Shown here: piece after piece, positions 3,637 to 61,292 of the stretch
How positions within the stretch are numbered: the first letter of the stretch is position 1
How the letters are laid out: every line of letters starts with the position of its first letter
Source of the DNA: Minisyncoccia bacterium
GTDB lineage: Bacteria; Patescibacteriota; Minisyncoccia; UBA6257; 2-01-FULL-56-20
Direction of reading: 5' to 3'
Assembly (NCBI GenBank): GCA_049997875.1
Contig: JBEKRC010000003.1
Coordinates: 115,687-179,686 of the forward strand
Length of the DNA: 64,000 bases
The notes under the pieces: model-generated
Database searches by the model: none
What the model was told of the DNA's origin: nothing
What the model saw: only the letters and a program-made list of their open reading frames with translations
Program-made: the position numbers and the translations under genes

Positions 3637-3758
3637 GCGCATGAGCGTTGGTTTTTGGAGCATCCCGGAGCCACAACGGCTTGAGGCGACCTTCAGGTCG
3701 CCTGTTGCAGCGAGGGCGAGCGGCGTTTCCCCGCTGGAGGAAACGACCGCTCATGCGC
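3637..3758 (-). terminator. Complex intrinsic terminator after fusA. An 11-bp closing stem (GCGCATGAGCG) encloses a conserved multi-hairpin insert of about 90 nt.
   Basis: Starts at the fusA stop codon. On the minus strand the stem is followed by CGCTGCCTTTTTTG. The interior is homologous to 7153-7244. Confidence 0.5.
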
Positions 3759-7053: not shown

Positions 7054-7127
7054 GGGCCTGTAGCTTAGTGGCAGAGCAGCCGGTTTGCATCCGGCAGATA
7101 GGGGTTCGATTCCCCTCAGGTCCACCA
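7054..7127 (+). tRNA. tRNA-Ala (TGC) with encoded CCA
   Basis: Cloverleaf built by hand: acceptor GGGCCTG/CAGGTCC, anticodon loop TTTGCAT, T-arm GGGGTTCGATTCCCC, 3' CCA. Confidence 0.9.
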
Positions 7128-7269
7128 GGAATAACGAATACTCTTAAAAGGGACGGTGTCGTTTCCTCCGGCGGGGAAACGCACCTCGCTCTCGCCACGG
7201 CAGACGACCTAAAGGTCGTCTCAAACCGCCGTGGCTCCGAGATGCCCTTTTAAGAGTATTCGTTATTCC
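7128..7269 (+). terminator. Complex terminator-like structure. A perfect 25-bp stem (GGAATAACGAATACTCTTAAAAGGG) encloses a conserved multi-hairpin insert of about 90 nt.
   Basis: Begins immediately after tRNA-Ala and is followed by a T-rich run. The interior has GTTTCC-N8-GGAAAC and GACGACC-N4-GGTCGTC hairpins homologous to the fusA 3' element. Confidence 0.5.
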
Positions 7270-7283
7270 TTATTGTTCTCTTG

Positions 7284-7413
7284 GGGAATCAAACGAGGAA
7301 AGGGGTCGGGGAAACCTTAGGTTTCCCCGTGTCGGAAAGAAGTTGAGAACCGTGGGTTCTCAAAGCGCAGGCCGGTCTTACCGGCCGAGCAGTGAGATTC
7401 CCCTCATGTCCAC
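7284..7413 (+). ncRNA. Conserved structured element E1, a candidate ncRNA or mini integrated element. It ends with a duplicate of the tRNA-Ala 3' end.
   Basis: About 85 percent identical to 36367-36517 over the conserved blocks, with compensatory hairpin changes. The 3' end GATTCCCCTCATGTCCAC copies the tRNA-Ala T-stem plus acceptor. Confidence 0.4.
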
Positions 7414-7493
7414 GGAGAACAAGCAAGGCAGTGAGACTCCCCTTAAAAAGGGAGCCGCAGTGGCTCTCTCGTGGCAACACACTGCGGCCCAAC

Positions 7494-31134: not shown

Positions 31135-32205
31135 TTACTGCCACCACTCAACGATCACAATGCCGGTGCCGCCGGTGCCGCCGCTCGCGCCAGCGGTGGT
31201 GGTGGCGGTACCGGCGCCGCCGCCGCCGCCACCAGCGGCGGTGCCGCCGGTGCCGCCGGCGGTGCTGGCAGGACCGCCGACCTTGGCACCGGTGCCGCCA
31301 GCACCGCCAGTGCCGCTACCATAGCCGCCATAGCCACCACCGCCACCGCCACCACCGCTGGCACCGCCGGCACCACCACCGTTAGGGGCACCACCAGCAC
31401 CGCCATTGCCGAAAACACCGCCACCGCCACCGCCAGCGCCAGCGACGTTGGTGGCGGCTGTGGCGGCGGCGCCGGCGTTGTAGCCGCCGCCACCACCGCC
31501 ACCGTAGCCATAGATGCCGTTGCCGTTACCCCCGCCAGCGCCACCACTACCGGCGACACCGCCAGCACCGCCACCGCTGATGACGCCGGCGCCGCCGCCG
31601 GCACCGCCGCCATAGCCGCCACCGGTGCCGCCGCTTAGGTTGGCGGAACCAGCGCTGCCAGCACCGCCACCACCGCCACCGCTAGCCACAACAAGCGTCC
31701 CAAAAGAAGAAGCAGCACCTGAACCGCCGGCGCCACCGGCACCGCCACCGCCACCGCCGGCGCCGACCGTAACCGAAACACTACTACTGGTTGCCGCAAC
31801 AGGATAACGCACATAACACACGCCGCCACCACCACCGCCGCCGGGACTACCTGAATATGCAGCTGCGCCGTTGCCACCGCCGCCGCCACCGCCGCCACCA
31901 CCGCATACCGTTACCCACACCGTAGACGTCGCTAAAGAAGTCGTCCACGTGCCACTCGCAGTGAAGATCTGTATCTGCGGCGTTTTCCCGCCGCTTCCCG
32001 CGAGAATGGCGGTATCAACATACGCCTTCGTTGCCGCATCACTGGATGCCGTCGTCGTCGTAAGCCCCGTGATGCGGGCGGGAATCGTGATCACGCCGCT
32101 CACGGAGGCGTTCACCTCGTTCAGGCGGCTATAAAGGTAAAGCGCCGCCGCGAATGCGACAATCGCAAACATTGCAACGATGAGAATCTTGTACTTCGTT
32201 TCCAT
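31135..32205 (-). CDS. Gly-rich membrane-anchored protein (poly-GGxGG low complexity)
   Basis: N-terminal TM METKYKILIVAMF; more than 50 percent Gly/Ala with GGAGG repeats. Confidence 0.65.
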   Translation of the reverse strand: METKYKILIVAMFAIVAFAAALYLYSRLNEVNASVSGVITIPARITGLTTTTASSDAATKAYVDTAILAGSGGKTPQIQIFTASGTWTTSLATSTVWVTVCGGGGGGGGGGNGAAAYSGSPGGGGGGGVCYVRYPVAATSSSVSVTVGAGGGGGGAGGAGGSGAASSFGTLVVASGGGGGGAGSAGSANLSGGTGGGYGGGAGGGAGVISGGGAGGVAGSGGAGGGNGNGIYGYGGGGGGGYNAGAAATAATNVAGAGGGGGGVFGNGGAGGAPNGGGAGGASGGGGGGGGYGGYGSGTGGAGGTGAKVGGPASTAGGTGGTAAGGGGGGAGTATTTAGASGGTGGTGIVIVEWWQ

Positions 32206-35714: not shown

Positions 35715-36169
35715 AATCCAAAGAGGAACAACCGGTCCAGCGAATAGGCCCCCGCGCCGTTCAGCGCAAGCACAAGAAGGGCCGCGAGGATGAGAAGATC
35801 AAATTCCCATCCGCCCACAAAGGGCTGCCTCTTTACGAGCTTCCAAACGACGATCGTCACGAACTGAAGCGCAAGCAGGGCCGCGATAGTAGGGGTGAAA
35901 ATCCCGAGGAGCAATCCGATGCCGCCGCCCGCAAATTCAAGGAGTGCGACGATCGTCCCCCAGAAAAATCCAGGCTTAAACCCCATCCCATCAAATGCCG
36001 CAGCCGTCTGTTTCAGACTTTTTATTTTTTGCCAGCCGTGGACAAGGAAAATGAGCGCGAGCGCGATGCGCAGCGCAAGGATCCCCATGCCACCGTAAAA
36101 GAAAAAAATGGAAAGCATAATAACGGTACAAAAGCAGACAAAAGCGAACCGACCTTTCAAAATGCGCAA
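35711..36169 (-). CDS. DoxX family membrane protein
   Basis: Four TM helices; DoxX-like pattern. Confidence 0.75.
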   Translation of the reverse strand: MRILKGRFAFVCFCTVIMLSIFFFYGGMGILALRIALALIFLVHGWQKIKSLKQTAAAFDGMGFKPGFFWGTIVALLEFAGGGIGLLLGIFTPTIAALLALQFVTIVVWKLVKRQPFVGGWEFDLLILAALLVLALNGAGAYSLDRLFLFGL

Positions 36170-36214
36170 CGCTATTATATTATAGCAAGCGTAGTCCCCG
36201 CGCGCAGCTGCGGC

Positions 36215-36286
36215 GGCCTCATCGTCTAATGGCTAGGACGGCGCCCTTTCACGGCGTAAATCCGGGTTCGATTCCCGGTGGGGCTA
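36215..36286 (+). tRNA. tRNA-Glu (TTC)
   Basis: Acceptor GGCCTCA/TGGGGCT with two GU pairs; anticodon loop CTTTCAC; T-arm CCGGGTTCGATTCCCGG. Confidence 0.75.
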
Positions 36287-36299
36287 CGGGCAAAGCAAA

Positions 36300-36364
36300 A
36301 GGGATTTGAAAGGAGTACTCAGAAGGGCTCCTTTCAAATCCCTTTTGCTTTGCTTTGTCTTCTA
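36300..36364 (+). terminator. Long perfect hairpin (26-bp stem) terminator after tRNA-Glu
   Basis: GCAAAGCAAAAGGGATTTGAAAGGAG, loop, then the reverse complement, followed by TTTGTCTTCT. Confidence 0.55.
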
Positions 36365-36366
36365 TC

Positions 36367-36493
36367 GGGAATCGAACGAGGAAAGGGGTCGGGGAAACCC
36401 TAGGTTTCCCCGTGTAGGAAGGTCGCGCGTTGCGCGCGACAGTTCGGCACCGAGGGTGCCGAAAGCGCAGGGCGCGAAGCGCCCGAGCAGTGA
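36367..36493 (+). ncRNA. Conserved structured element E2, homologous to E1
   Basis: Shares GGGAATCGAACGAGGAAAGGGGTCGGGGAAACCYTAGGTTTCCCCGTGT, AAAGCGCAGG and GAGCAGTGA blocks with E1; variable hairpins co-vary. Confidence 0.4.
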
Positions 36494-36517
36494 GATTCCC
36501 GGTGGGGCTACGAAAAT
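36494..36517 (+). repeat. Duplicate of the tRNA-Glu 3' end (GATTCCCGGTGGGGCTACGAAAAT); att-like direct repeat, copy 2
   Basis: Its first 20 nt are identical to tRNA-Glu 36268-36287; its last 20 nt (36498-36517) are identical to 37795-37814. Confidence 0.7.
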
Positions 36518-36577
36518 CCCGTAGATGCCAGAAATAAGAAAGCTGCGGGATCTCTTCAGACCCCGCAGATGTAATCC

Positions 36578-37498
36578 CTAACTCTTGGCAGCCAGTTTTT
36601 CAATCTCGCGATCGAGTGCTGCTTTCTTCTGTTCCGCCTCACGAATCGCTTCGAGCCGTTTGTGTTCCTTCGCTCTCAAATCGTACTCTTTGAGGAACCA
36701 AGCGGCCTTTGAGCCGACATAGCACGCCTCGTCGATCGTGGCAGCCAGGCGGTTCTTCGTTACGGGATGGTACGACGTCTTGAGTTCATTGCGCAAGGCG
36801 ATCTCTTTGAGTTTAGCGAGACATGCCTCGTCAAGCTCAAGTATCCACTCCCTCAACACATCGATCCTTTCCAACTGGGCAAAGACTTCAACCATCCAGG
36901 GCTTCGCCGCATCCACCCGAACGCGCGTTGCGGCGATACGTTTTTCTGCTTCATCTTTCTTGCTCGCGTCGTACCATTGCGTACCCGGCTCTTTCCATTT
37001 CCAGATGAAATTCGCCAGATTCAGTAGGAAGTCGAGGGCCTGCTGCTCGTTGTGAGACTGTTCCTCGCGATACGGAAGATTGCGGATTTCCACGCCATTG
37101 TCGAACCGTCGTTTCTCGACCCTGAAGAAGTTCTGGATGATTGGGAAAAGCCGTTCGGAGACAACCGTTCCCTCCCAGAACTCGTTAAACCTATCACCAT
37201 AACGGCCTCCTTCCAGAAGCTCCGCCTTGAAAAAATTCAAACAGAGCATGTCGAAGGCTTTGCGCGCCAACTGATGGCGGAGGTCGCTCTGCGTCTTTTG
37301 GATGCGTCTTCCGTTCGAGTCATACCCGAGATCGTACTCCTTACTCCCATCGGTTGGGAGCTGGAGCAAATAACGGTCCGCCCAGCCGTCGGCAATGATG
37401 AGATAGAACATGATCCGATCAATGCGGTCATATTTTTTCTCCCCGTCATGCCGTTGCTCAAGCGAAATACTGAATCCGACATGGAGCAAGCTCTCCAT
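36578..37498 (-). CDS. Hypothetical protein (306 aa), cargo of the tRNA-Glu-linked cassette
   Basis: Long ORF, mostly helical with a coiled-coil C-terminus; no recognisable motif. Confidence 0.65.
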   Translation of the reverse strand: MESLLHVGFSISLEQRHDGEKKYDRIDRIMFYLIIADGWADRYLLQLPTDGSKEYDLGYDSNGRRIQKTQSDLRHQLARKAFDMLCLNFFKAELLEGGRYGDRFNEFWEGTVVSERLFPIIQNFFRVEKRRFDNGVEIRNLPYREEQSHNEQQALDFLLNLANFIWKWKEPGTQWYDASKKDEAEKRIAATRVRVDAAKPWMVEVFAQLERIDVLREWILELDEACLAKLKEIALRNELKTSYHPVTKNRLAATIDEACYVGSKAAWFLKEYDLRAKEHKRLEAIREAEQKKAALDREIEKLAAKS

Positions 37499-37794
37499 CC
37501 ACTGGAAATCCTCTGCCCCCTGCCAGCGTGCAAGAAACTCGTGCCAATTGCGAATCGGTCGAATTTCCCGCGTAAGAAGCGTGTGAATCGCAACTTCGTC
37601 TTTCTATGTTTGTGTAGGCACGGTGTGCCTCCTTTTTGGGTTATGCCCCGCACTGTGACGGGACGATACAACTACCCAAAACTTACTCTTGCTGCCCGTG
37701 TTGTCAAGCACCACAAAATCCTTCAATACATTAGAATTGCTTGTTGTACTGCCCTCCACCCCCCATTTCCCTCATAATCCGGTTCCAACTATAT

Positions 37795-37814
37795 CCCGGT
37801 GGGGCTACGAAAAT
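37795..37814 (+). repeat. att-like direct repeat copy 3 (CCCGGTGGGGCTACGAAAAT)
   Basis: Exact 20-nt repeat of 36498-36517. Confidence 0.7.
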
Positions 37815-37926
37815 ATTTTGAAACAATCAGATCTGAAATCGCAATGAGTTTGTAAGCTCAGATCTGTGGTGGACGGCTCCTCGGGAACCGTCCACCAAAC
37901 CATTCTAGGATTCCTCCCTGCAAAGG

Positions 37927-48190: not shown

Positions 48191-48262
48191 TTCCGGCGTA
48201 GCTCAATGGTAGAGCGGCTCCCTGTTAAGGAGATGGTTCCAGGTTCGAGTCCTGGCGCCGGA
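48191..48262 (+). tRNA. tRNA-Asn (GTT)
   Basis: Acceptor TCCGGCG/CGCCGGA, anticodon loop CTGTTAA, T-arm CCAGGTTCGAGTCCTGG; anchor of the downstream repeat array. Confidence 0.85.
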
Positions 48263-48264
48263 GC

Positions 48265-48294
48265 ACCTAGTAAAAGTATCCGGGAGACCGAGAG
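48265..48294 (+). repeat. B-motif prototype (CCTAGTAAAAGTATCCGGGAGACCGAGAGG) directly after tRNA-Asn
   Basis: Recurs after most A-motif copies in the array. Confidence 0.7.
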
Positions 48295-48323
48295 GTCGTA
48301 GTCAATTCGATATACTTAAGATC

Positions 48324-48725
48324 ATGGATCAAAAGAAGATTGCTCCTATTATTGTCATTGTCGGTGCTACCGCCATGCTGGTCGGGGCACTTGATCCATT
48401 GGAAGGATCGGTCGTCATCCTGGTGGGCAGTGGCTTGGTGGCACTCGGCACATTCCTGAGCAATGCTAGCCGACGCTTGCGTGTTTACTGGATATGGACT
48501 TTCCTCCTGATAGCGTTCGGAGTCGGCGTGATGTTCGGAGCGAGCGCGATGGGAGGTTTTGGCGGCACTACCGGACGTTCGATATGGTGGGCAGTTCTAG
48601 TTCTGCCCTATCCTGTTGGCTGGGTGATGGGTGTCGTCAATCTGTTTTTCAGACTTAGACGAAAACGCGGTTATCGAGACAAGGGCGTTTTCCCCTCTCC
48701 CCCAGATTCTCACTTCGTCCAGTGA
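48324..48725 (+). CDS. Polytopic membrane protein (cassette 1)
   Basis: GATATACT -10; four TM helices. Confidence 0.6.
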   Translation: MDQKKIAPIIVIVGATAMLVGALDPLEGSVVILVGSGLVALGTFLSNASRRLRVYWIWTFLLIAFGVGVMFGASAMGGFGGTTGRSIWWAVLVLPYPVGWVMGVVNLFFRLRRKRGYRDKGVFPSPPDSHFVQ

Positions 48726-48735
48726 GCGGAGCGGA

Positions 48736-48765
48736 GAAAAATATAGTGAGTAGCGGGGTGGGGTA
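48736..48765 (+). repeat. G-rich C-motif (ATAGTGAGTRGCGGGGTGGGGTAAC), copy 1
   Basis: Also at 49993-50024 and 51319-51349, with a partial copy at 51581-51596. Confidence 0.6.
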
Positions 48766-48841
48766 ACTTTTTAGGTTAAGCCACCGGTTGCAAATCCGGT
48801 ATATAGATATGCTGATTTTCCTCTAATGCCTTGCAAATTCT

Positions 48842-48901
48842 GGTTCTAACGTCGTCCACGATGCGGAGCGGACAACATTTTTTATCGGATAGACCGAGAG
48901 G
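48842..48901 (+). repeat. Array repeat R1: A-motif (GGTTCTAACGTCGTCCACGATGCGGAGCGG) plus the B' variant
   Basis: Copy of the tRNA-Asn 3' end region. Confidence 0.75.
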
Positions 48902-48938
48902 CCCCAATTTTTCAAGATTCTTTAGAACCGAGGCAGGA

Positions 48939-48997
48939 GGTTCTAACGTCGTCCACGATGCGGAGCACCTAGTTAAAGTATTGGGGAGACCGAGAGG
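48939..48997 (+). repeat. Array repeat R2: A-motif plus B-motif
   Basis: 40 of 47 nt identical to the tRNA-Asn 3' end plus flank. Confidence 0.75.
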
Positions 48998-49077
48998 CAT
49001 CGGTTTGGCAGAAGCAGAAATCCATGCTATGTTCATTGCTGGAAGTTGGGTTTCAAAATTCTTTATTGGGGGTGGTT

Positions 49078-49278
49078 ATGTTACCAGGGAATCGGGTGCG
49101 AGTACGCGAAGAAAAGCGAGATGAGCCCCTGCTGCGAGGGTTGCCTCCCGTCCCTCCAAAGGGCTATGGGGTAGAGAAGGTGGTGAGTGACCCAGAGTGC
49201 CCCTTGGGAACGCAGGCTCAAATCCTCATAAAGCTGGATGGCGTAACAGATTTGTTGCCAGAGGTTCTTTTCCGTTAG
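49078..49278 (+). CDS. Small hypothetical protein (66 aa)
   Basis: ORF in the cassette between R2 and R3; weak. Confidence 0.3.
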   Translation: MLPGNRVRVREEKRDEPLLRGLPPVPPKGYGVEKVVSDPECPLGTQAQILIKLDGVTDLLPEVLFR

Positions 49279-49382
49279 GCGATGTGCCGATCAAATTACC
49301 AAGATGGGGTCGCGTCTGGCCCCATCCCAACTTAAACCTACAAAAAGCTTGCGGTTTTAGGTTGGGATAAGGTATTGATGGT

Positions 49383-49412
49383 GGTTCTAACGTCCTCCAG
49401 CCGCCGGGACGC
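49383..49412 (+). repeat. Array repeat R3 (A-motif)
   Basis: GGTTCTAACGTCCTCCAGCCGCCGGGACGC. Confidence 0.75.
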
Positions 49413-49562
49413 AATCCCGAAATTGGAAATGGGCAAGTCGTTTTCGACCTGCCCATTGTATCCGCCGATAGCATCTCGGGTTTCATCGACCCGTAGCGCT
49501 TGAAGGCCTCGGCGGGGGCCTTTCTTCCAGCAAACTAGAGGTTATCGTCGATCGCGATTGCG

Positions 49563-49934
49563 CTAGCGGAACGGACGCATCTTTTCCGTACACTTCCCGC
49601 AAACGACGACCCGCTTTTCGCCCTCGTCGGTCGCCATAATCCGAGATGCGTTCGGATAGTGGTGACACTTGTGGCACTCGCCGTCCGAATATGCCGCCCT
49701 GGGAAGCTTGGAGTAAACAATGCTTCCCGTGCCGACCGCGGTGCCCGCCTTCACCTCCCGCGGAGCAGGAGTGCAACCTCCTTTGCCGCGCCCTTGGCGG
49801 CGCAACTTCTTACGCATCCATCCCTTGCTCTTCCACGGATGGCCGCCATTGGCAGCCGTGTAGTCGATGTAGTGCATATACGCCTCCCTGGGTCCGAGCT
49901 TACATCCGACGCGGTGCAAAATGCAAACATCCAT
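49563..49934 (-). CDS. Zinc-ribbon-containing hypothetical protein
   Basis: CHKCHH...CGKC Cys/His clusters; hairpin terminator downstream at 49414-49446. Confidence 0.5.
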   Translation of the reverse strand: MDVCILHRVGCKLGPREAYMHYIDYTAANGGHPWKSKGWMRKKLRRQGRGKGGCTPAPREVKAGTAVGTGSIVYSKLPRAAYSDGECHKCHHYPNASRIMATDEGEKRVVVCGKCTEKMRPFR

Positions 49935-49961
49935 CTCGGGAAATCTGCGAACCTGATGCGA

Positions 49962-50024
49962 TTCTTACGTCATCCATCCACCTGTGCACCTCAAAACAAT
50001 AGTGAGTGGCGGGGTGGGGTAACC
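49962..50024 (+). repeat. Degenerate A-motif plus C-motif copy 2
   Basis: TTCTTACGTCATCCATCCACCTGTGCACC followed by AAAACAATAGTGAGTGGCGGGGTGGGGTAAC. Confidence 0.55.
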
Positions 50025-50097
50025 CTAGACTAAGGCTAATAATCCCCTGATTTCCCTCATAGCAAGAGTGGGATCGGGCAAGGCTGCCTCCCACCCA

Positions 50098-50158
50098 AAG
50101 GTTCGAAAGGCGTCCTGCCAAGCGAGCACCTAGTAAAAGTATCGGATAGACCGAGAGG
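50098..50158 (+). repeat. Degenerate A-motif plus B-motif
   Basis: ...CCAAGCGAGCACCTAGTAAAAGTATCGGATAGACCGAGAGG. Confidence 0.6.
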
Positions 50159-50167
50159 GGCAAAATA

Positions 50168-50207
50168 GTTCGAGCCGACCGTTGGTGTCATCGCGGGTCG
50201 GCTCGAC
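50168..50207 (-). terminator. Hairpin terminator (12-bp stem) downstream of the minus-strand gene 50255-51103
   Basis: GTTCGAGCCGACC...GGTCGGCTCGAC. Confidence 0.5.
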
Positions 50208-50254
50208 ATAGGAACTGTTCCATGCTTGGCGAGAAGTCGGCCAGGCTCGTGGTG

Positions 50255-51103
50255 TCAGAAGGTGAAACAACCCTTGAGGATGGTGGCAAAAGTACCATCA
50301 GCGGTTTCGAGGGTGACATCTCCCCGAATCGTGTGCACCCCAGGTCCGGCAATCCCCCCAGTCACGATCGTTTGCCCGTCATAGGAGACAAGGCCAGGCA
50401 CGACGCTGAAGCCCCCTTCAAAGCCCATTATCCCAAAATAGAAATCCATGGGCTGGTTTTTGGGGAAAGTGCCATAAATCGTAAAGAATTGGTACCCTTG
50501 AGCCGTCGTCGCCGTAACTACGTGATCGATGACGATCGGTCCAACCTCACCCGACGGCTGGGTCCAGAGAATGTATGCCGTCAGACGTGCATTTTGGATC
50601 ACCTCGCGGGTCGTCATATCATGGAACGTTACCAGGAAATCATAGCGTCCGTACTGCCACCCCTGGAACGTATCAGTCGCGAACAGTTTGGCACTATAGA
50701 GCTGGATGCTCGGGAAATAGCCTGGGGCGCTCTCGTTGGCGCCTCTTGCTCCGATGGGTCGAGCCCAAATGGGGCTGGACGCTGACCCATAGTAGTACTC
50801 CTCCACACTCACCGACACCGGATCGGTGATAGCCTGCAAAGCTTGGTACCAGAGTTCTATCGTGGATAGAGGCTGACAGAACTTACAGCTCTGGTTAAGC
50901 AGGAAGGGCGGGGCCGAAGTGCTCGTGGCAGCCGAATTGGCCTCGCTGGCTGACGCTTCGTCCACTTTTCCTTCGTGGACTAAAACCATTTTTGGCTTTT
51001 GGAACCGCGGTTCTCGGACCATGCTTTCCTGCCCGTAAGTCACCATACAACCGAATACAAACACGACTCCAGCGAACCCTACAATCCCACACAGTTTTCT
51101 CAT
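50255..51103 (-). CDS. Secreted hypothetical protein (282 aa)
   Basis: Perfect AAGGAGG RBS before the ATG at 51103; signal peptide MRKLCGIVGFAGVVFVFGCMV. Confidence 0.7.
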   Translation of the reverse strand: MRKLCGIVGFAGVVFVFGCMVTYGQESMVREPRFQKPKMVLVHEGKVDEASASEANSAATSTSAPPFLLNQSCKFCQPLSTIELWYQALQAITDPVSVSVEEYYYGSASSPIWARPIGARGANESAPGYFPSIQLYSAKLFATDTFQGWQYGRYDFLVTFHDMTTREVIQNARLTAYILWTQPSGEVGPIVIDHVVTATTAQGYQFFTIYGTFPKNQPMDFYFGIMGFEGGFSVVPGLVSYDGQTIVTGGIAGPGVHTIRGDVTLETADGTFATILKGCFTF

Positions 51104-51318
51104 ACTCTGACTTCCTCCTTGTGATCTCTTTTGTGAAATGCGAACTCCGGCGACATCATATGACATTTAATCTTAGTTTGTCAATAGTTCGTAATGGTTC
51201 AATAGCTTGGAACCACCCCGGAAATATTTCAAGCTATGTATATGGCATATAACAATAATCCCGAACATCCGCCGGTAATCAATTAACCAAATCTGACCCT
51301 GTGTAGATGATTTTGCCC

Positions 51319-51349
51319 TAAAACAATAGTGAGTGGCGGGGCGGGGTAA
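51319..51349 (+). repeat. C-motif copy 3
   Basis: AAAACAATAGTGAGTGGCGGGGCGGGGTAAA. Confidence 0.6.
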
Positions 51350-51411
51350 ATCAATCCAGTCGTGGTAATATAAGGTAAAGGCCGTTCACTAACAAATCAC
51401 CACTTATTACT

Positions 51412-51576
51412 ATGAACTCCTTATACGTTGTAGCGTTCGTTGTGCTGTTGGTAGCCGTCGTAGTCACCGTGGATATCCTGTTCTTCAGAAACCTGTTCTG
51501 GGAACGGCTGATGGTGAATGTTGGAATTGTCCTGATATTCGCAGCGTTCGGCTTGAGATTCCTGAAGCATCTATGA
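51412..51576 (+). CDS. Very small membrane protein (54 aa)
   Basis: Two TM helices; below the 60-aa cut-off of the ORF track; found by hand. Confidence 0.35.
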   Translation: MNSLYVVAFVVLLVAVVVTVDILFFRNLFWERLMVNVGIVLIFAAFGLRFLKHL

Positions 51577-51662
51577 AACCCGCGTGGGTGGGGTAATCAA
51601 ACTTTCACTGCTTCCGGCCTCAAGTCAGGGATGTAAATATACCCCTTTTGCTCCTCAATTCT

Positions 51663-51721
51663 GGTTCTAACGTCCTCCACGCGCCGGAGCGGCCAGGAGA
51701 AGTATCGGGGAGACCGAGAGG
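51663..51721 (+). repeat. Array repeat R4: A-motif plus B-motif
   Basis: GGTTCTAACGTCCTCCACGCGCCGGAGCGG followed by CCAGGAGAAGTATCGGGGAGACCGAGAGG. Confidence 0.75.
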
Positions 51722-52550
51722 CATCATCCCTTTTGTTACGGTCACACTCGCACGATCCAGACTCTCTGATTTCAGAAAAAAACAAGGGCATACGCCTGTT
51801 GCGTCGCCCTTTCTTGGATCCCCCGGAGGAGTGGAGAAGCTGCCGCCTGTACGAACTCGCCTCGTACCCTTGCGAGCACAATGCGGGTCCGTGAAGCGGA
51901 GCCTCTCTCACTTCCTTCGCGGTTTGAGAGCAAATGGATGAGGAGTATTTCCTGCCGTGAGGCCGGATCGGATTGTTGCTACCGCTTGCGCGATAGCCCG
52001 CCTTCTTGGAGTTTCCCATAAAGGATACTCCGCAGAACAGTGCCGAAGAGCACGCTCTCCGTCACCGGGAGATCGCCTCCCGAGGGTTCCGCTTACGCGG
52101 AACATCCCGGATGGCCCCGAATCCTCCACATTGCTGCGAAGGAGATCTCCATATGTATCTTCTGGCTGTTGCGCCAGATTCTCCCCATTCTGTCTCCGTG
52201 GGTTCGCAGCGACGGTTCCTTGCGGAACCTTTTCTCTCCCTAATCGCTAGGCAGAGCCGTCGCGCAGCACATCGTCCGTCGTGTGATAACTCGACCTTAT
52301 CGGCCAAGTCGTCCCTCGCGGATCGCTTGCCGTCGCCAAGGCTTTTTGCATCCCTTGCGAAACACTGAAGCGTTTGGTAAAACCCGCTGCTCTCATCTGA
52401 CAAACTCTGACAATGTACGTGATTATCATTCTATAGGTGTCACGGGGATGGTCAATGCTCAAAAGGCTAAGAAACTGAATAGGCTGTGGAATGCTTGTGG
52501 GGAATATGGATTTATATAGCAATCTGCCTCAAGAAGGGCTTCCCCAGCCA

Positions 52551-52609
52551 GATTCTCCCATCCTCCAGCCGCCGGAGCGGCTAGTAAAAGTATCGGGGAG
52601 ACCGAGAGG
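52551..52609 (+). repeat. Array repeat R5: degenerate A-motif plus B-motif
   Basis: GATTCTCCCATCCTCCAGCCGCCGGAGCGG followed by CTAGTAAAAGTATCGGGGAGACCGAGAGG. Confidence 0.75.
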
Positions 52610-52640
52610 CGTCGCGCTTGCTATAATGAGCGTGAACATC

Positions 52641-53126
52641 ATGGAACAATCACCTTCGAATTTCTGGAAAAATATTCCCAAGAAAAGAATGGGGACGGGC
52701 GCGCTCATCTTTAACGAGAAGAGTGAGGTATTAATTGTGAAACCGACCTACAAAGGTCATTGGTCCGTTCCTGGTGGCGTTGTTGACGCCAATGAGTCTC
52801 CGCGTGAAGCATGCATGCGAGAGATTAAGGAGGAAATCGGACTGATCATGCCAGAACTTCACTTTATATGCGTCGCATACCAACGCAATTCAGGCACCGA
52901 GAAAGGAGAAAGTCTTCAGTTCATGTTTTACGGCGGCGTTCTTATCCAAGACACAATTGAGCAAATTGTCATCTCAAAAGAAGAAATTGCGGAGTTTAAG
53001 TTCGTGGATATGAAAATGGCATTGTCTCTCTTGAACAGTGCCCTCGCCAATCGCCTGTCGCTCTCAATGGAAGCGATCAAGAAAAATCAACCTTTCTATC
53101 TGGAACGAGAGAATGCGGATTCTTAA
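52641..53126 (+). CDS. NUDIX hydrolase (cassette)
   Basis: GGVVDANESPREACMREIKEEIGL Nudix box; TATAAT 14 nt upstream. Confidence 0.8.
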   Translation: MEQSPSNFWKNIPKKRMGTGALIFNEKSEVLIVKPTYKGHWSVPGGVVDANESPREACMREIKEEIGLIMPELHFICVAYQRNSGTEKGESLQFMFYGGVLIQDTIEQIVISKEEIAEFKFVDMKMALSLLNSALANRLSLSMEAIKKNQPFYLERENADS

Positions 53127-53131
53127 GCAGA

Positions 53132-53160
53132 GGTTCTAACGTCGTCCAGCCGCCGGAGCA
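53132..53160 (+). repeat. Array repeat R6 (A-motif)
   Basis: GGTTCTAACGTCGTCCAGCCGCCGGAGCA. Confidence 0.75.
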
Positions 53161-53185
53161 GACAGGTTTTTGCTATAATCGCTTT

Positions 53186-53842
53186 ATGATCAAGGCGGTC
53201 ATATTCGACATGGACGGTCTCATGATTGACAGCGAACCGATCCAATCGAAATCATTCGAGTATGTTCTCAGGACTCATGACAAAGCGCCGATTTTCAACC
53301 CCAACGGTTTGATCCAGACGATAGGCATCACCGCAAAGGATAATTGGATTCTGTTAAAAGAAAAACACAATCTTACCGCCAGCGTAGCGTCCCTCTTGGC
53401 AAAAAAAAGAAGTGTCTATGGGAAATTACTGAAAGAGAACGTCAAACCACAAAAAGGACTGTTCTCCCTTATCAAAAAGTTGAAAAAAGGGGGGTTCAAA
53501 CTGGGCATCGCCTCTTCGTCCAAGTTAAGCAATATCAAGCTGGTGTTGTCCTCTCTTCATTTGAGCCGCTCGTTTGACGTAATACTATCCGGAGAATCAC
53601 TCACCCGTGGGAAACCGCACCCTGACATCTTTTTGGAAACAGCGAGGAAACTAAGCGTGGATCCAAGCGACTGCGTTGTCCTCGAAGACGCAGAGAGCGG
53701 GGTGGAAGCGGCGCATCGCGCGAAGATGAAGGTCATTGCGGTGCCGAACAAATTTACCCGTGATCATGATTTCAAAAAAGCGGATCTCGTCGTTTCCAGC
53801 CTGGGGAAAATCACACCAAGAACACTCCGGAACAGGTTCTAA
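53186..53842 (+). CDS. HAD-superfamily hydrolase (beta-phosphoglucomutase-like subfamily)
   Basis: N-terminus AVIFDMDGLMIDSE (DxD); downstream GKPHPDIF and LEDAESGVEAA motifs. Confidence 0.85.
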   Translation: MIKAVIFDMDGLMIDSEPIQSKSFEYVLRTHDKAPIFNPNGLIQTIGITAKDNWILLKEKHNLTASVASLLAKKRSVYGKLLKENVKPQKGLFSLIKKLKKGGFKLGIASSSKLSNIKLVLSSLHLSRSFDVILSGESLTRGKPHPDIFLETARKLSVDPSDCVVLEDAESGVEAAHRAKMKVIAVPNKFTRDHDFKKADLVVSSLGKITPRTLRNRF

Positions 53843-53862
53843 CATAGTCTAAGCGCCGGAGC
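53835..53862 (+). repeat. Array repeat R7 (degenerate A-motif)
   Basis: GGTTCTAACATAGTCTAAGCGCCGGAGC. Confidence 0.6.
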
Positions 53863-53928
53863 AAATAAAGTGGCCAGCACATCGGTCTGGCCACTCGGTT
53901 GAACTTTCATTAAGGGAAGGAGCGAGCA

Positions 53929-54174
53929 TCATGCTGACATCGTGGCGACGTCGGTATCCAGTTGCGCCTGGAGCAGAGATCCCCCCTCCCTGTAGGCCGA
54001 CTCGTACGCTGTCTCGTCGGTGCCGAAAGATACCTTCCCTTCGGAGACCTTAGAGCCTAGAGCCGAAACTGACGGCACGAAGCCTTTCCCCAGGAAAGAA
54101 TCCACGTGCGCAATGCTAAACTCGTAGATACTCTCGGTTGCTACGATATCGGTGCGATTCTTCTTCCACCTCAT
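53929..54174 (-). CDS. Small hypothetical protein (81 aa), downstream member of an overlapping gene pair
   Basis: ATGA start/stop overlap with the 54171-54479 gene. Confidence 0.4.
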   Translation of the reverse strand: MRWKKNRTDIVATESIYEFSIAHVDSFLGKGFVPSVSALGSKVSEGKVSFGTDETAYESAYREGGSLLQAQLDTDVATMSA

Positions 54175-54479
54175 TGTCCTACCTCCCTACGGGAACGAAT
54201 GCCCGTTTTTGGTCGTTGCGACATAAGGAAGGATGCGAATCGCATCTCCCCTTGTCCTTCCCTTACGTATACCCGAATCTTGAGGTTGCTTTGGAATGCG
54301 CTCCGTCTCAAGTAGGAGAGTTTTCGGGACCCGACGCGGTAGATGTCGTGCTTGATTCCTTGACTATCGCGGATATCCCGCAAAACATCCTCCTCAGGTA
54401 ACTCCCTAGCTAGTGCCGCATTAGTATTGGCATCGAGCGGCTCTACAAACCAATCGTACGTTCGTTTCCTTTTTCCCAT
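54171..54479 (-). CDS. Small basic hypothetical protein (102 aa), upstream member of the overlapping pair
   Basis: GAGAGGTG RBS before the ATG at 54479. Confidence 0.45.
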   Translation of the reverse strand: MGKRKRTYDWFVEPLDANTNAALARELPEEDVLRDIRDSQGIKHDIYRVGSRKLSYLRRSAFQSNLKIRVYVREGQGEMRFASFLMSQRPKTGIRSRREVGQ

Positions 54480-54563
54480 AGAACACACCTCTCTTCCACG
54501 AAAAGATGGCTGGCTATCACGATATTCGCAGACAACGCACTAGGTGTCAATCCGCGCCAAACA

Positions 54564-54593
54564 GGTTCTAACGTCCCCCAGCCGCCGGAGCGG
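54564..54593 (+). repeat. Array repeat R8 (A-motif)
   Basis: GGTTCTAACGTCCCCCAGCCGCCGGAGCGG. Confidence 0.75.
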
Positions 54594-54726
54594 ATAGGAT
54601 TTGCAAATCGTTTCAAACTTGAAACCATTACAACTGTAGTGAGCTCAAGTTTACGCCCGATCCATTAGCCTCCTTTCTGGTTGACTAATCGGGCGTTTGA
54701 TTTAGAAGGAACTCCGCCCCGATACC

Positions 54727-55011
54727 TCATTGCGCAGTCGTTGGAGAGTGTCCCTCACCTAGCACTGTGGTGAACCTAGGACGAAATCTGGCCTGCCACC
54801 ATCGGTCCCTTTTCCGGAACCACTCCTCCACTTCTTTCGGAGATCTCCCCTCCAGGGTTTCGGCGAGTTGCATGATAGCATACTGCACAACGAAAGACCT
54901 CGAAGCCTTGTGATACCCTTGTCGCTGAAGCGTTGCCTTAATAGCGTCCAAACTTTCTGCCTGATCCTGGTAAAGACTGATTGCCCGTATCACGTATCTT
55001 CGTTTGGACAT
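54727..55011 (-). CDS. Ribbon-helix-helix (CopG/Arc-like) small DNA-binding protein
   Basis: KRRYVIRAISLY strand followed by an SRSFVVQYAIMQL helix. Confidence 0.5.
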   Translation of the reverse strand: MSKRRYVIRAISLYQDQAESLDAIKATLQRQGYHKASRSFVVQYAIMQLAETLEGRSPKEVEEWFRKRDRWWQARFRPRFTTVLGEGHSPTTAQ

Positions 55012-55122
55012 ATTCTTACCACCTTCCTTTCGATATGAATGTGCAATTGCAAGTTATAAGCCTAAAAAGTGTGATTGTCAACAAACGCCATCAATCGGAG
55101 GTGGCATAATCCTCACCAGAGA

Positions 55123-55152
55123 GGTTCTCACCTCCTCCAGTCGCCGGAGCGG
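55123..55152 (+). repeat. Array repeat R9 (A-motif)
   Basis: GGTTCTCACCTCCTCCAGTCGCCGGAGCGG. Confidence 0.75.
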
Positions 55153-55260
55153 ATAGGTTTTCACACCGCAAAGAGCCGAAGTTTGCACATCCCTTGATTG
55201 TGTGTCTATACTGGAACCAGGACTGGGAATTATCCCAGCATTTAAAAGGAGGGTTAGGCC

Positions 55261-55716
55261 ATGAAAAGACTGTTATGGGTTGCTACCGCGCTAGTGGCAA
55301 TTTGTGTATTCATCCAGGCACCAGTTGTGGGACAAACGGACAATGTGACGATCGCACCCCAAGCTCCGGTGGCAGAGCATCAACTGCTGGAAGCGAAGAT
55401 CGACGAGAAACTCCTTCTGCCGGGCGAGAAGCAATGTTCATTCTTTCTCCTCACGACGTTTGGTGGCAGACTGAAGCCGGGGATTCGTTTCCAATTCCTC
55501 GACAACGGTCCTCCAAAGAAAATCAAGGTGGAGATTGTTCCCGTCACAAAAATCCGCGTCATCATAGATGAACAGAAAAGTCTGCCCACAGCCGAGAAGG
55601 TCGAGAATGACAATGGAGAGTTCATCTGGTTACTCCGGTTGAGTACTAAGACTTACGAACCTTGTAAGGATTGCCTACCAGAGCCGACCAAACCACCGGC
55701 ATCCCCACAAAAGTAG
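55261..55716 (+). CDS. Secreted hypothetical protein (151 aa)
   Basis: TATACT -10; AAAAGGAGGG RBS; signal peptide. Confidence 0.7.
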   Translation: MKRLLWVATALVAICVFIQAPVVGQTDNVTIAPQAPVAEHQLLEAKIDEKLLLPGEKQCSFFLLTTFGGRLKPGIRFQFLDNGPPKKIKVEIVPVTKIRVIIDEQKSLPTAEKVENDNGEFIWLLRLSTKTYEPCKDCLPEPTKPPASPQK

Positions 55717-55824
55717 CGCCGATTGCTTTCAGTTCCGGGCGCGCAGCACCGGCATCGCCGATGCTACCTCCGCCCACTCCCCCAAGATCGGCAACAAAGG
55801 TTGATGATTTTAGGTGAGACAACA

Positions 55825-55854
55825 GGTTCTCACATCGTCCAGCCGCCGGAGCGG
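55825..55854 (+). repeat. Array repeat R10 (A-motif)
   Basis: GGTTCTCACATCGTCCAGCCGCCGGAGCGG. Confidence 0.75.
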
Positions 55855-55902
55855 AAAGTTGATGCGGACAAGAACTTTTTCTGGTATGCTAGAGCTTGAT
55901 AT

Positions 55903-56469
55903 ATGATCAAGTTTGTTTTTCATGGCGGCGCTACGAGAAAACCTCTTGAAGGAAATAAGCGGTTTTTTGCCGAAATGGTTCGGGGCCTCCGCGAGCCTAT
56001 TAAGATATTGAATGTCTATTTCGCGAGGGAGGAAAGTCGATGGAACGAAGCGATGGAAGATGACAAGCAAAACTTTCGGAATGCCGCACCGAATATCAAA
56101 ATGGAGTTTTCCTTAGCGAACCCCGAATCTTTCGTGACACAGGTCAAAGATGTGGGCGTGGTCTATGTGCGCGGCGGGAGTACTCCCCTCCTCAAGAAGG
56201 CCTTTGAACCATTTTCTCAATTTCTCACACTCCTCGATGGAAAAGTCTATGGCGGCTCCTCTGCTGGAGCCGACGTTCTTGCAAAATACTATTGCTCTAG
56301 AGAATCTGACGAAATCCTAGAAGGACTTGGCCTCCTGCCCATCAAAGTATTCCCTCATTATGACGAAAGCGAGCGAGAGAAACTGGAAAAACTTAAGGCA
56401 TGGAAGGAGGATCTGCCGACATACACCATAGCAGAGGGAGAGTATTTTATTTACAAAAACAGGTTCTAA
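55903..56469 (+). CDS. Peptidase S51 (dipeptidase E)-like protein
   Basis: VYVRGGSTPLL and GGSSAGADVL resemble the GGNTF and GxSAG motifs of PepE. Confidence 0.65.
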   Translation: MIKFVFHGGATRKPLEGNKRFFAEMVRGLREPIKILNVYFAREESRWNEAMEDDKQNFRNAAPNIKMEFSLANPESFVTQVKDVGVVYVRGGSTPLLKKAFEPFSQFLTLLDGKVYGGSSAGADVLAKYYCSRESDEILEGLGLLPIKVFPHYDESEREKLEKLKAWKEDLPTYTIAEGEYFIYKNRF

Positions 56470-56520
56470 CGTCGTCCAGCTCGCGGAGCGGGCAACATTT
56501 TTTATCGGACAGACCGAGGG
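56462..56520 (+). repeat. Array repeat R11: A-motif plus the B' variant
   Basis: GGTTCTAACGTCGTCCAGCTCGCGGAGCGG followed by GCAACATTTTTTATCGGACAGACCGAGGG (B' as in R1). Confidence 0.75.
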
Positions 56521-56563
56521 GCGTAGCAAAATATCTTGAAGCTTCGTTTGCTACAATTGAGGT

Positions 56564-57196
56564 ATGAATAAGAAAGGATTTGCGACGCTCGCGATCGCGT
56601 TGATTGTCGTGGCCATTCTGATCGCTGGCGGTGTTTGGTATTACATGAAAAACATTTCTTCACCGACCCAATTGGTCGCTTGTACCCAGGAAGCGAAGGA
56701 ATGCCCCGACGGTTCCTACGTTGGGCGCACCGGTCCCAATTGCGAATTTGCCGCTTGCCCGGGCATGACAACAACTACATCCTCAATACCGTTGCCAACA
56801 GCCTATGTGAATGTTCTCTATAACGGTTTATTGCACATAGCGACTTCCAATATCTCAACACTGGGCCAGTTACCCCCGGGGCTATCACTTGTCCCGATGG
56901 AACATGGTTGCGTACCGTCTGAGCCACAATGCCCTCAAAATGATTTTTATCTCCACGGGCAAGCTACGCAAGCGGGAACATATGCATTCAGTGTTGTATT
57001 TTCTATTGACGGCGATCAAATTACCCAATCCTATCACATACAGGTCTTACCACAAAATCAGGAATCGGCACACAATACCTGCGAGAGCAATTTTGATTGC
57101 CCCGCAGGACAAACGTGTATGGTGACCGGTCCGATCATAGCGGGTAGAACAATCCAAAAAAATTGTTATCCAGCAGGACAAGCGGCACCCCAATAG
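56564..57196 (+). CDS. Membrane-anchored Cys-rich secreted protein (210 aa)
   Basis: TACAAT -10; GAGGT RBS; N-terminal TM; about 14 Cys. Confidence 0.7.
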   Translation: MNKKGFATLAIALIVVAILIAGGVWYYMKNISSPTQLVACTQEAKECPDGSYVGRTGPNCEFAACPGMTTTTSSIPLPTAYVNVLYNGLLHIATSNISTLGQLPPGLSLVPMEHGCVPSEPQCPQNDFYLHGQATQAGTYAFSVVFSIDGDQITQSYHIQVLPQNQESAHNTCESNFDCPAGQTCMVTGPIIAGRTIQKNCYPAGQAAPQ

Positions 57197-57223
57197 GTTC
57201 TTACGTTGTCCACACTCCGGAGC
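57196..57223 (+). repeat. Array repeat R12 (degenerate A-motif)
   Basis: GGTTCTTACGTTGTCCACACTCCGGAGC. Confidence 0.65.
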
Positions 57224-57249
57224 ATCGTTTAGTGTGCTATAATAAAAAC

Positions 57250-61132: not shown

Positions 61133-61292
61133 GTATTATTGTTATTAGTTAATTTTAAGAACGTTATTTATCTATTGGATCTAACGTCATCGACCGACCT
61201 CAACGTTGAGACACCACAATAGGGTGCCGTTCCTATGGCCGGTTCATTACAGCGCAGGGTATGGCGAGCGGCGGGATGGGGTTAATCAATGC

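Follow-up and report, generated by a model that had tools for sequence, protein, structure and literature searches.

A putative tRNA-coupled structured element and a cassette-like single-gene unit behind tRNA-Glu in a Minisyncoccia bacterium

Introduction

Which described systems place stacks of small genes behind a tRNA? The closest are the tycheposons of Prochlorococcus, tRNA-targeting integrative elements that accrete in tandem (bioRxiv 10.1101/2020.12.28.424599). Here we analyze a locus behind tRNA-Glu(UUC) in a 64-kb stretch of a Minisyncoccia genome (contig JBEKRC010000003.1, positions 115,687 to 179,686), referred to as the window, which carries a structured module that we call E2 and, behind it, a 1.3-kb unit with a single gene. 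The locus resembles tycheposons in that its elements lie beside a full tRNA and are separated by partial tRNA copies, and in a layout in which repeated integration at one site would push older units outward and leave degenerate remnants and cargo-only stretches. With integrons, the second point of reference, it and the related arrays described below share the organization into single-gene units, each ending in a recombination-site-like repeat into which some open reading frames (ORFs) run, and the diverse, mostly unannotated nature of the cassette gene families.

Patescibacteria, also known as the Candidate Phyla Radiation (CPR), have tiny genomes of ~0.9 Mb, and their modes of gene gain and loss are poorly understood. 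An earlier note on the window had interpreted the tRNA-Glu locus as a stack of site-specific insertions, the newest being nearest the tRNA. The explanation that we favor, with a slightly better than even chance of being correct, is instead a locus of two layers: a resident, tRNA-coupled structured module, and a small recombinase-less cassette inserted at the module's own copy of the tRNA 3' end.

Results

The tRNA-Glu(UUC) gene occupies positions 36215-36287 of the plus strand, as called by ARAGORN (ttc) and Rfam (60.7 bits), and does not encode CCA. Its 3' segment is present in three direct copies on the same strand, as the earlier note had recognized: copy 1, GATTCCCGGTGGGGCTACG, 19 nt within and at the end of the tRNA (36270-36288); copy 2, the identical 19 nt again, which forms the 3' arm of E2 (36494-36512); and a shorter copy 3, TCCCGGTGGGGCTACG, which retains 16 nt (37794-37809). 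The 20-mer reported to be common to copies 2 and 3 extends to an exact 21-mer, TCCCGGTGGGGCTACGAAAAT, located at 36497-36517 on the left and at 37794-37814 on the right, where it consists of the 16 nt of copy 3 plus AAAAT. That this word might be frequent throughout the genome was a concern that did not materialize, as the 20-mer occurs twice in 64 kb with 0.00 occurrences expected (100 shuffles). The similarity to the tRNA extends beyond copy 3 on its upstream side, where AATCCGGTTC-CAACTATA-TCCCGG is, by its sequence, a pseudo T-arm with an enlarged and altered T-loop. A fourth copy of the tRNA 3' part, inverted and degenerate (TTTGTCTTCTATCGGGAATCGAAC), lies at 36354-36377; the earlier note had missed it, as well as what kind of interval separates copies 1 and 2. 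As in integrative elements, direct repeats of the tRNA 3' part (attachment sites, attL/attR) bracket the putatively inserted DNA and leave the tRNA intact.

The interval between copies 1 and 2 (36288-36512) is made up of a 26-bp hairpin followed by E2, an element of ~150 nt. The trailer hairpin (36290-36353, plus strand) has perfect 26-bp arms (36290-36315 and 36328-36353) and a loop of 12 nt. The 5' arm of E2 (36354-36377, plus strand) is the inverted copy of the tRNA 3' part, in which CGGGAATCGAAC is the exact reverse complement of GTTCGATTCCCG. It leads into a structured core (36366-36501, plus strand) that scores 144.3 bits with a covariance model and shows covariation. The core is composed of a closing helix P1, whose 3' strand is copy 2, a tandem G-A internal loop, an invariant hairpin GGGGAAACC/GGTTTCCCC, an optional GC hairpin and two covarying hairpins, connected by the invariant joining strands GAACGAGGAAAGGGGTC, AAAGCGCAGG and CCGAGCAGTGA. 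Single-sequence folds yield z-scores of -5.3 and -5.7, and in the consensus fold 93% of cells are paired. Double compensatory changes are found in 16 of 37 base pairs, as compared with 7.8 +/- 1.5 in shuffled alignments, none of 500 of which reaches the observed value, and with at most 6 in slid-partner controls. The secondary structure of E2 is thus supported by covariation beyond controls; its status as an RNA is what we infer from this structure.

A search with Rfam 15 returned only tRNA above the gathering threshold in the whole window, and nothing credible over 36354-36512 at E-values up to 10. Neither E2 nor tRNA-anchored cassette arrays in CPR turned up in literature searches. A promoter-like site, TTCAAA-16-TATTAT (36156-36183, plus strand; a consensus match only, at 9 of 12 positions), is located ~30 nt 5' of tRNA-Glu and is the sole plus-strand candidate able to drive both tRNA-Glu and E2; apart from it, the promoter scan detected no plus-strand site preceding E2. 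As to E2 itself, permuted tmRNA, retron non-coding RNA, a k-turn or TIGR repeat and a T-loop intron were considered and dropped for want of a supporting feature, as was an RNase P-like RNA, with which the only common feature is the word GAGGAAAG.

E2 is not confined to this locus. Pattern scans of GTDB genomes and JGI metagenomes revealed eight further loci, which, together with two copies in the window, bring the family to ten copies in several Patescibacteria assemblies. A covariance model built from nine of them recovers all ten with 65-152 bits and nothing else in 155 kb; it detects no third copy in the window, for example in the array behind tRNA-Asn described below. Eight of the ten are situated just downstream of a tRNA or tRNA 3' end: besides tRNA-Glu in the window, these are tRNA-Ala for the second window copy (7283-7403), tRNA-Asp (L002), tRNA-Glu(UUC) (L003, L018), tRNA-Glu(CUC) (L004, L020) and an uncalled tRNA 3' end (L017). 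The remaining two are uninformative, L001 having a degenerate tRNA-like remnant upstream and L019 being on a contig that ends before any tRNA.

Where the tRNA 3' end can be read, in seven copies, E2 matches the adjacent tRNA at both of its ends. The 3' arm corresponds to the cognate tRNA 3' end in exact blocks of 11-19 nt, and the 5' arm to the reverse complement of the cognate T-loop and T-stem in exact blocks of 8-14 nt, for example CGGGAATCGAAC for Glu, GGGGAATCAAAC for Ala and GATGGGATTTGAAC for Asp. Simple duplication of an attachment site accounts for the sense copy, but not for the matching antisense copy. Moreover, the outer part of the Glu 5' arm, TTTGTCTTCTATC, pairs with GGTGGGG via G-U, which fits a plus-strand RNA rather than a homogenized or perfect DNA palindrome. 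In all eight loci tested, one continuous long hairpin can also form from the tRNA 3' part, the trailer hairpin and the 5' arm of E2; the 5' arm is thus able to pair with either the tRNA 3' part or the 3' arm of E2, but not with both at once. For the Glu transcript, the modular fold of cloverleaf, hairpin and closed E2 has a predicted energy of -164.3 kcal/mol, and the swapped fold one of -174.0 kcal/mol. For the Ala transcript, the modular fold is the optimum; its two global folds are ~1 kcal/mol apart, as against within 10 kcal/mol for Glu. The stems of the trailer hairpin are perfect or near perfect in orthologous loci, including L003 and L018, despite divergent sequence, and this maintenance of pairing suggests a processing stem.

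Several variants of this arrangement were encountered. In the distant genome L026, a hairpin and an inverted copy of the 3' end come after tRNA-Glu(CUC), but of E2 there is no more than a vestigial start. Directly upstream of the tRNA-Glu of the sister genome L003, a weak E2-like fragment (L003:3413-3523; 15 bits, E = 0.13) is present that is absent from the window. At 7054-7420, a structured insert of 92 nt, enclosed by a perfect 26-bp stem, lies between tRNA-Ala(UGC) and the second window copy of E2; an 83%-complementary copy of the insert is found on the other strand at 3660-3747, just downstream of the EF-G gene, and the same type of hairpin precedes E2 at tRNA-Glu(CUC) in L004, with compensatory changes in the stem. 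In several Patescibacteria, tRNA-Glu(CUC) has a conserved place after an mraZ-PBP-murE cluster, where it is followed by a gene of the ~345-aa family described below (L025, L026) or by E2 (L004, L020).

The second layer of the locus lies between copies 2 and 3. The DNA specific to it spans 36518-37793 (1276 bp), and the unit measured from repeat to repeat has 1297 bp and is flanked by the perfect 21-bp direct repeat. On its sequence, it behaves as a site-specifically inserted cassette, and to this extent the insertion proposed in the earlier note appears justified. Read along the minus strand, it holds a possible promoter, TTGACA-17-TAAGTT (37708-37680), seen by eye and not called by the promoter scan; a 5'-untranslated region (5'-UTR) element (37622-37664); one gene (36578-37621); and, directly after its stop codon, an intrinsic-terminator-like hairpin with T-tract (36543-36568).

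The right end of the unit is formed by a motif on the plus strand, CCACCCCCCATTTCCCTCATAATCCGGTTCCAACTATA (37756-37793), which contains GGTTCCAAC at 37781-37789. It is conserved in the window and in the sister genomes L001 and L003, where it recurs at L001:3356 and L003:4139, and the DNA upstream of it is unrelated. As the motif is succeeded by unrelated DNA in L003, a crossover immediately after ...CTATAT is suggested. The unit end ...CATAATCCGGTTCCAACTATA also terminates every unit of an array behind tRNA-Asn in the window and the units of an array in a distant genome. The word GGTTCYAAC is found nine times in the window, always on the plus strand and against 0.94 occurrences expected; eight of the nine belong to the tRNA-Asn array. 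The distant array, on the Patescibacteria contig L012 behind tRNA-Ala(GGC), has at least 13 repeat sites of the same design, GGTTCCAA(C/T), a spacer and the tRNA 3' strand; one of its units encodes P0004, a 62%-identical homologue of the tRNA-Glu cargo. By inspection, these ends, GGTTCYAAC-N4-tRNA 3' strand, have no matching inverted partner of the kind seen in attC-type sites. The E2 core and the end motif are absent from IMG/VR, where two chance 17-mer matches fail the covariance model, and a phage origin was dropped.

The tRNA-Asn array itself (48192-57230, behind tRNA-Asn(GUU)) is made up of at least 11 units, which measure 0.56-0.89 kb apart from some longer ones and each end in GGTTCT(A/C)AC-N4-TCCAGCCGCCGGAGC, a pseudo tRNA-Asn 3' part. 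Its cargo comprises unrelated small genes on either strand (NUDIX, HAD hydrolase, peptidase S51 and several of no assigned family); two of the ORFs end with ...NRF-stop inside the repeat GGTTCTAA, and five sites additionally repeat ~30 nt of the downstream flank of the tRNA. A further motif, A(A/T)ATAGTGAGT(A/G)GCGG(G/A)(G/A)TGGGGTA(A/G)C, recurs within the array (48737-48766, 49993-50022, 51320-51349; also at 61255-61284), and 3' of a gene of the ~345-aa family in a Giovannonibacteria genome (L011:7090-7120).

What does the tRNA-Glu cassette encode? The 306-aa minus-strand ORF noted earlier is indeed present (36578-37498), but translation against homologues reveals a conserved N-terminus in frame upstream of it, reaching to a GTG start at 37621, interrupted by an in-frame TAG at 37606-37604 that constitutes codon 6. 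The 306-aa ORF restarts at ATG 37498, which corresponds to Met40 of the homologues. All 13 conspecific contigs covering the site have the TAG; the gene with this fixed codon is either a young pseudogene, or reinitiated at Met40, or translated by read-through. The exact cargo protein is annotated as 'hypothetical' in a Minisyncoccia metagenome-assembled genome. It belongs to a Patescibacteria family of ~345 aa with more than 150 homologues of ~340-350 aa, in none of which a Pfam domain is recognized. Searches of the 306-aa ORF against Pfam, PADLOC and PHROGs, and of two full-length homologues against NCBIfam, gave no match, and a profile search against PDB sequences returned only noise. An AlphaFold model of high confidence (predicted local distance difference test, pLDDT, 94) has no significant structural neighbor in PDB or BFVD, and no remote homology connects the family to the cargo proteins of L001, L004 and L020. 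There is thus no basis for calling the cargo a recombinase, or, as had been surmised, an abortive infection (Abi) or other defense protein.

The 5'-UTR element (37622-37664, minus strand) consists of a covarying hairpin, GCATAACCCAA and an A-rich ribosome-binding site, in this order. The same motif is found upstream of homologues in four distantly related Patescibacteria, with the hairpin-GCAUAACCCAA portion at L011:5950-5990, L013:5945-5985, L024:5005-5045 and L026:4945-4985, and is a candidate cis-regulatory RNA. Nine genomic contexts of the family were inspected: four members are located by tRNA-Glu (window, L024, L025, L026), one after tRNA-His (L011) and one in the tRNA-Ala array of L012, and two have no tRNA nearby.

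The relative age of the layers can be read from two complete sister genomes (L001, L003), which have ~88-90% nucleotide identity to the window and are syntenic on both sides of the locus. In L003, tRNA-Glu, the hairpin and E2 are all retained, and the stretch from E2 to the pilin genes is filled by a 0.3-kb unit without a gene and by genes for an NYN-domain protein, a secreted protein and a glycogen synthase. L001 has likewise kept E2 and the pilin genes of the right flank, with ORFs of 418 and 168 aa as its cargo. As E2 is retained and the cargo behind it differs between sister species, E2 is, by this comparison, older than the cassette. The notion that the unit nearest the tRNA is the newest is therefore reversed.

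Right of copy 3, the two hairpins mentioned in the earlier note are found at ~37827-37866, the first, defined by reading of the sequence, and at 37867-37897. The DNA right of copy 3 is homologous over ~110 nt to that directly following the E2 3' arm at the tRNA-Glu(CUC) locus of L004. Going by this direct junction in a sister genome, the hairpins (37827-37897) are probably the original downstream flank. In L003, the junctions at 3827-4153 and 4890-4932 are hybrid: the Glu-type arm of E2 runs straight into a 3' fragment of Asn type, CAGCCGCCGGAGC, and an end of Glu type, GGTTCCAACTATAT, is succeeded by unrelated DNA. Their composition suggests exchange between sites of different tRNAs.

Elsewhere in the window, a GC-rich (0.69) repeat with a periodicity of 9 nt (GCCACCGCC and similar; 31160-31910), which translates into a glycine-rich repeat on the minus strand, adjoins pilin-like and signal-peptidase genes.

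Discussion

How could the tRNA-Glu locus have come about? In the two-layer explanation, the older, resident layer (36288-36512) would belong together with tRNA-Glu and comprise the long perfect hairpin and E2, most likely a putative non-coding RNA of ~150 nt in the same sense as the tRNA. Its closing helix would be built from an antisense 5' arm and a sense 3' arm of the segment from T-loop to 3' end. Alternatively, the 5' arm would pair with the 3' half of the tRNA and lengthen the trailer hairpin, such that the tRNA 3' part, its inverted copy and its direct copy could form two mutually exclusive helices around a multi-hairpin core. E2 might accordingly be a putative tRNA-coupled RNA, acting as a processing or regulatory element, and its duplicated tRNA 3' end may double as a landing site outside the essential tRNA.

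The younger layer (36518-37793) would be a self-contained 1.3-kb unit, inserted exactly at the E2 3' arm. The mechanism that we infer is conservative site-specific recombination within or beside the 21-bp identity, with a recombinase acting in trans; the excised unit would be expected to have the circle junction ...CCGGTTCCAACTATATCCCGGTGGGGCTACGAAAATCCCGTAGATGCC..., and the empty locus the junction ...GCAGTGAGATTCCCGGTGGGGCTACGAAAATATTTTGAAACAATCAG.... Such a unit would carry with it the possible promoter, the conserved 5'-UTR element, one gene and the terminator, and would present at its right end a site of the type ...ATAAT-NN-GGTTCYAAC-N4-tRNA 3' strand, as in the tRNA-Asn array and in other tRNA-linked arrays of Patescibacteria. 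The nonsense codon would have inactivated the cargo gene or truncated it N-terminally, and the arrangement would by now be fixed in the species.

Several observations weigh against this explanation. No recombinase is found in the called genes of ~26-64 kb and in ten larger ORFs in 0.8-15.7 kb, which upholds the earlier statement on its absence for these parts of the window, with ~16-26 kb unscreened. Likewise, ten larger ORFs around E2 in four other loci include none, no recombinase or nuclease domain is encoded by the ORFs screened around six E2 loci, which are housekeeping genes or have no Pfam match, and the only ORF inside the unit is the cargo gene, which matches nothing in Pfam, PHROGs, PADLOC or NCBIfam and has no structural neighbor. 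A true empty site was not found at the orthologous locus, the sole uninterrupted junction being that of the paralogous tRNA-Glu(CUC) locus. All 13 conspecific contigs, from at least eight samples, are filled and 100% identical over 1.7 kb (36200-37900), without polymorphism, and 23 of 23 contigs with the neighboring DoxX protein also carry the cassette gene; there is thus no sign of current mobility within the species. An identical arrangement lacking polymorphism had been named beforehand as an argument against insertion; it is found within the species, but not between species. In three distant genomes (L024-L026), the family gene lies by tRNA-Glu in the same orientation without flanking repeats, so that insertion need not explain the whole linkage to tRNA-Glu, part of which could be ancestral or functional. 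Finally, the end motif with copy 3 occurs once per locus in three sister genomes (the window, L001 and L003), and could be an orthologous fossil bounding a replacement hot spot.

This last possibility leads to the rival that fares best, improbable as we consider it. Here homologous recombination would replace the cargo by way of two conserved anchors, E2 at the left end and copy 3 with a fossil pseudo-tRNA fragment at the right, the repeats being old duplications. Besides the single occurrence of motif and copy 3, the absence of a recombinase from the screened ORFs and of polymorphism within the species would be natural in this case, as would the already degenerate repeats of L001. However, old duplications do not sit easily with a 21-bp repeat that is perfect and placed exactly at the unit boundaries, with a GGTTCYAAC type of site at every unit boundary of the tRNA-Asn and L012 arrays, or with L004, where E2 is joined directly to right-flank DNA without the motif. 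The hybrid Glu- and Asn-type junctions of L003 are moreover what site-specific exchange predicts.

Only a little less probable is the stacked insertion of the earlier note, by which two successive integrase-type elements entered the tRNA 3' end, E2 being the newest and the copies being attL/attR scars. The direct repeats of the tRNA 3' end that bracket both units next to an intact tRNA are in line with it, and interchangeable hairpin modules recur in E2 units at different tRNAs, suggesting that these units spread between loci. For the outer unit this interpretation survives within our own. The interval between copies 1 and 2, however, shows no recent insertion: the conservation of E2 across species together with its varying cargo implies the opposite order of age, loci with E2 only exist (L002, L004, L020), no integrase is encoded in the screened parts of the window or in flanking ORFs of four other E2 loci, and duplication of an attachment site explains neither the tRNA-matched inverted 5' arm nor the covarying hairpins.

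Could E2 instead act at the level of DNA, as a folded single-strand recombination site like attC or the CTX attP(+) hairpin, with a stem that rebuilds the duplex tRNA target? This would count against a resident RNA module, but we regard it as unlikely to a greater degree than the preceding two. E2 is an imperfect palindrome with a stem of target sequence, the cargo lies at its 3' arm in the window, L001 and L003, and, by eye, its 5' arm read on the minus strand, CCCCTTTCCTC-GTTCGATTCCCG, resembles the end motif CCCCCATTTCCCTC...GGTTCC. Set against this, cassette arrays exist without E2 (behind tRNA-Asn in the window, and L012) and E2 without cargo (behind tRNA-Ala in the window, L002 and L004); conserved single-stranded joining strands, a tandem G-A loop and G-U pairs are features that one expects of RNA; and the GTT...AAC boxes run in the opposite polarity to those of attC. 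Least probable is that E2 is a guide-type RNA in the style of bridge RNA or omega RNA, whose arms would direct an RNA-programmed recombinase or nuclease to the tRNA 3' end: it does have a conserved scaffold, similar with its ~130 nt to the length of known guide scaffolds, and variable ends matching the adjacent tRNA on both strands, but no IS110, TnpB or IscB-type gene lies beside any inspected locus, the arms pair with each other rather than residing in open loops, and there is no Rfam match.

Returning to the two-layer explanation, what would follow from it? The tRNA-Glu locus, the tRNA-Asn array of the window and the distant tRNA-Ala array point to a shared system, in which single-gene units without a recombinase of their own would be stacked behind tRNAs at a conserved pseudo-T-arm site. 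E2, for its part, is a well-supported structured element absent from Rfam, the sequence of which tracks the neighboring tRNA on both strands. No standard attachment-site mechanism yields such a design, and it raises the question whether bacteria possess an RNA that senses, mimics or guards the 3' half of a tRNA. More tentatively still, as a proposal to which we give a rather low chance, E2 would represent an undescribed class of tRNA-coupled RNA in Patescibacteria, a scaffold with ends programmed antisense and sense to the tRNA, which might serve as a switch between maturation of the tRNA and sequestration of its 3' half, or as the RNA or landing pad of an integrase-less cassette-capture system.

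Where, then, does the locus stand among known systems? In contrast to tycheposons, the units are tiny (0.3-1.3 kb, one gene) and carry no integrase, replication or packaging gene, the partial tRNA copy has a rewritten T-loop (GGTTC-YAAC-N4), and a structured module matched to the tRNA, E2, is interposed between tRNA and cargo. In contrast to integrons, the arrays are headed by a tRNA, with no intI and with called genes on either side that lack a recombinase domain; the repeat is a pseudo tRNA 3' part instead of an attC palindrome with RYYYAAC/GTTRRRY boxes; and the tRNA-Glu cassette appears to have its own promoter and terminator. The insertion would thus be a variant of tRNA-targeted site-specific accretion, to which tycheposons and integrons come closest although it lacks defining features of both, and E2 would be the more original element of the locus. 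Its nearest analogy may be to three-segment RNA switches, such as attenuators and the expression platforms of riboswitches: the 5' arm of E2 can pair with either of two identical partners, but the regulated element would be the upstream tRNA and not a downstream ORF, and the likeness is one of resemblance only. Should the capture system be real, it would amount to an integron-like device in genomes that are thought to contain very little mobile DNA.

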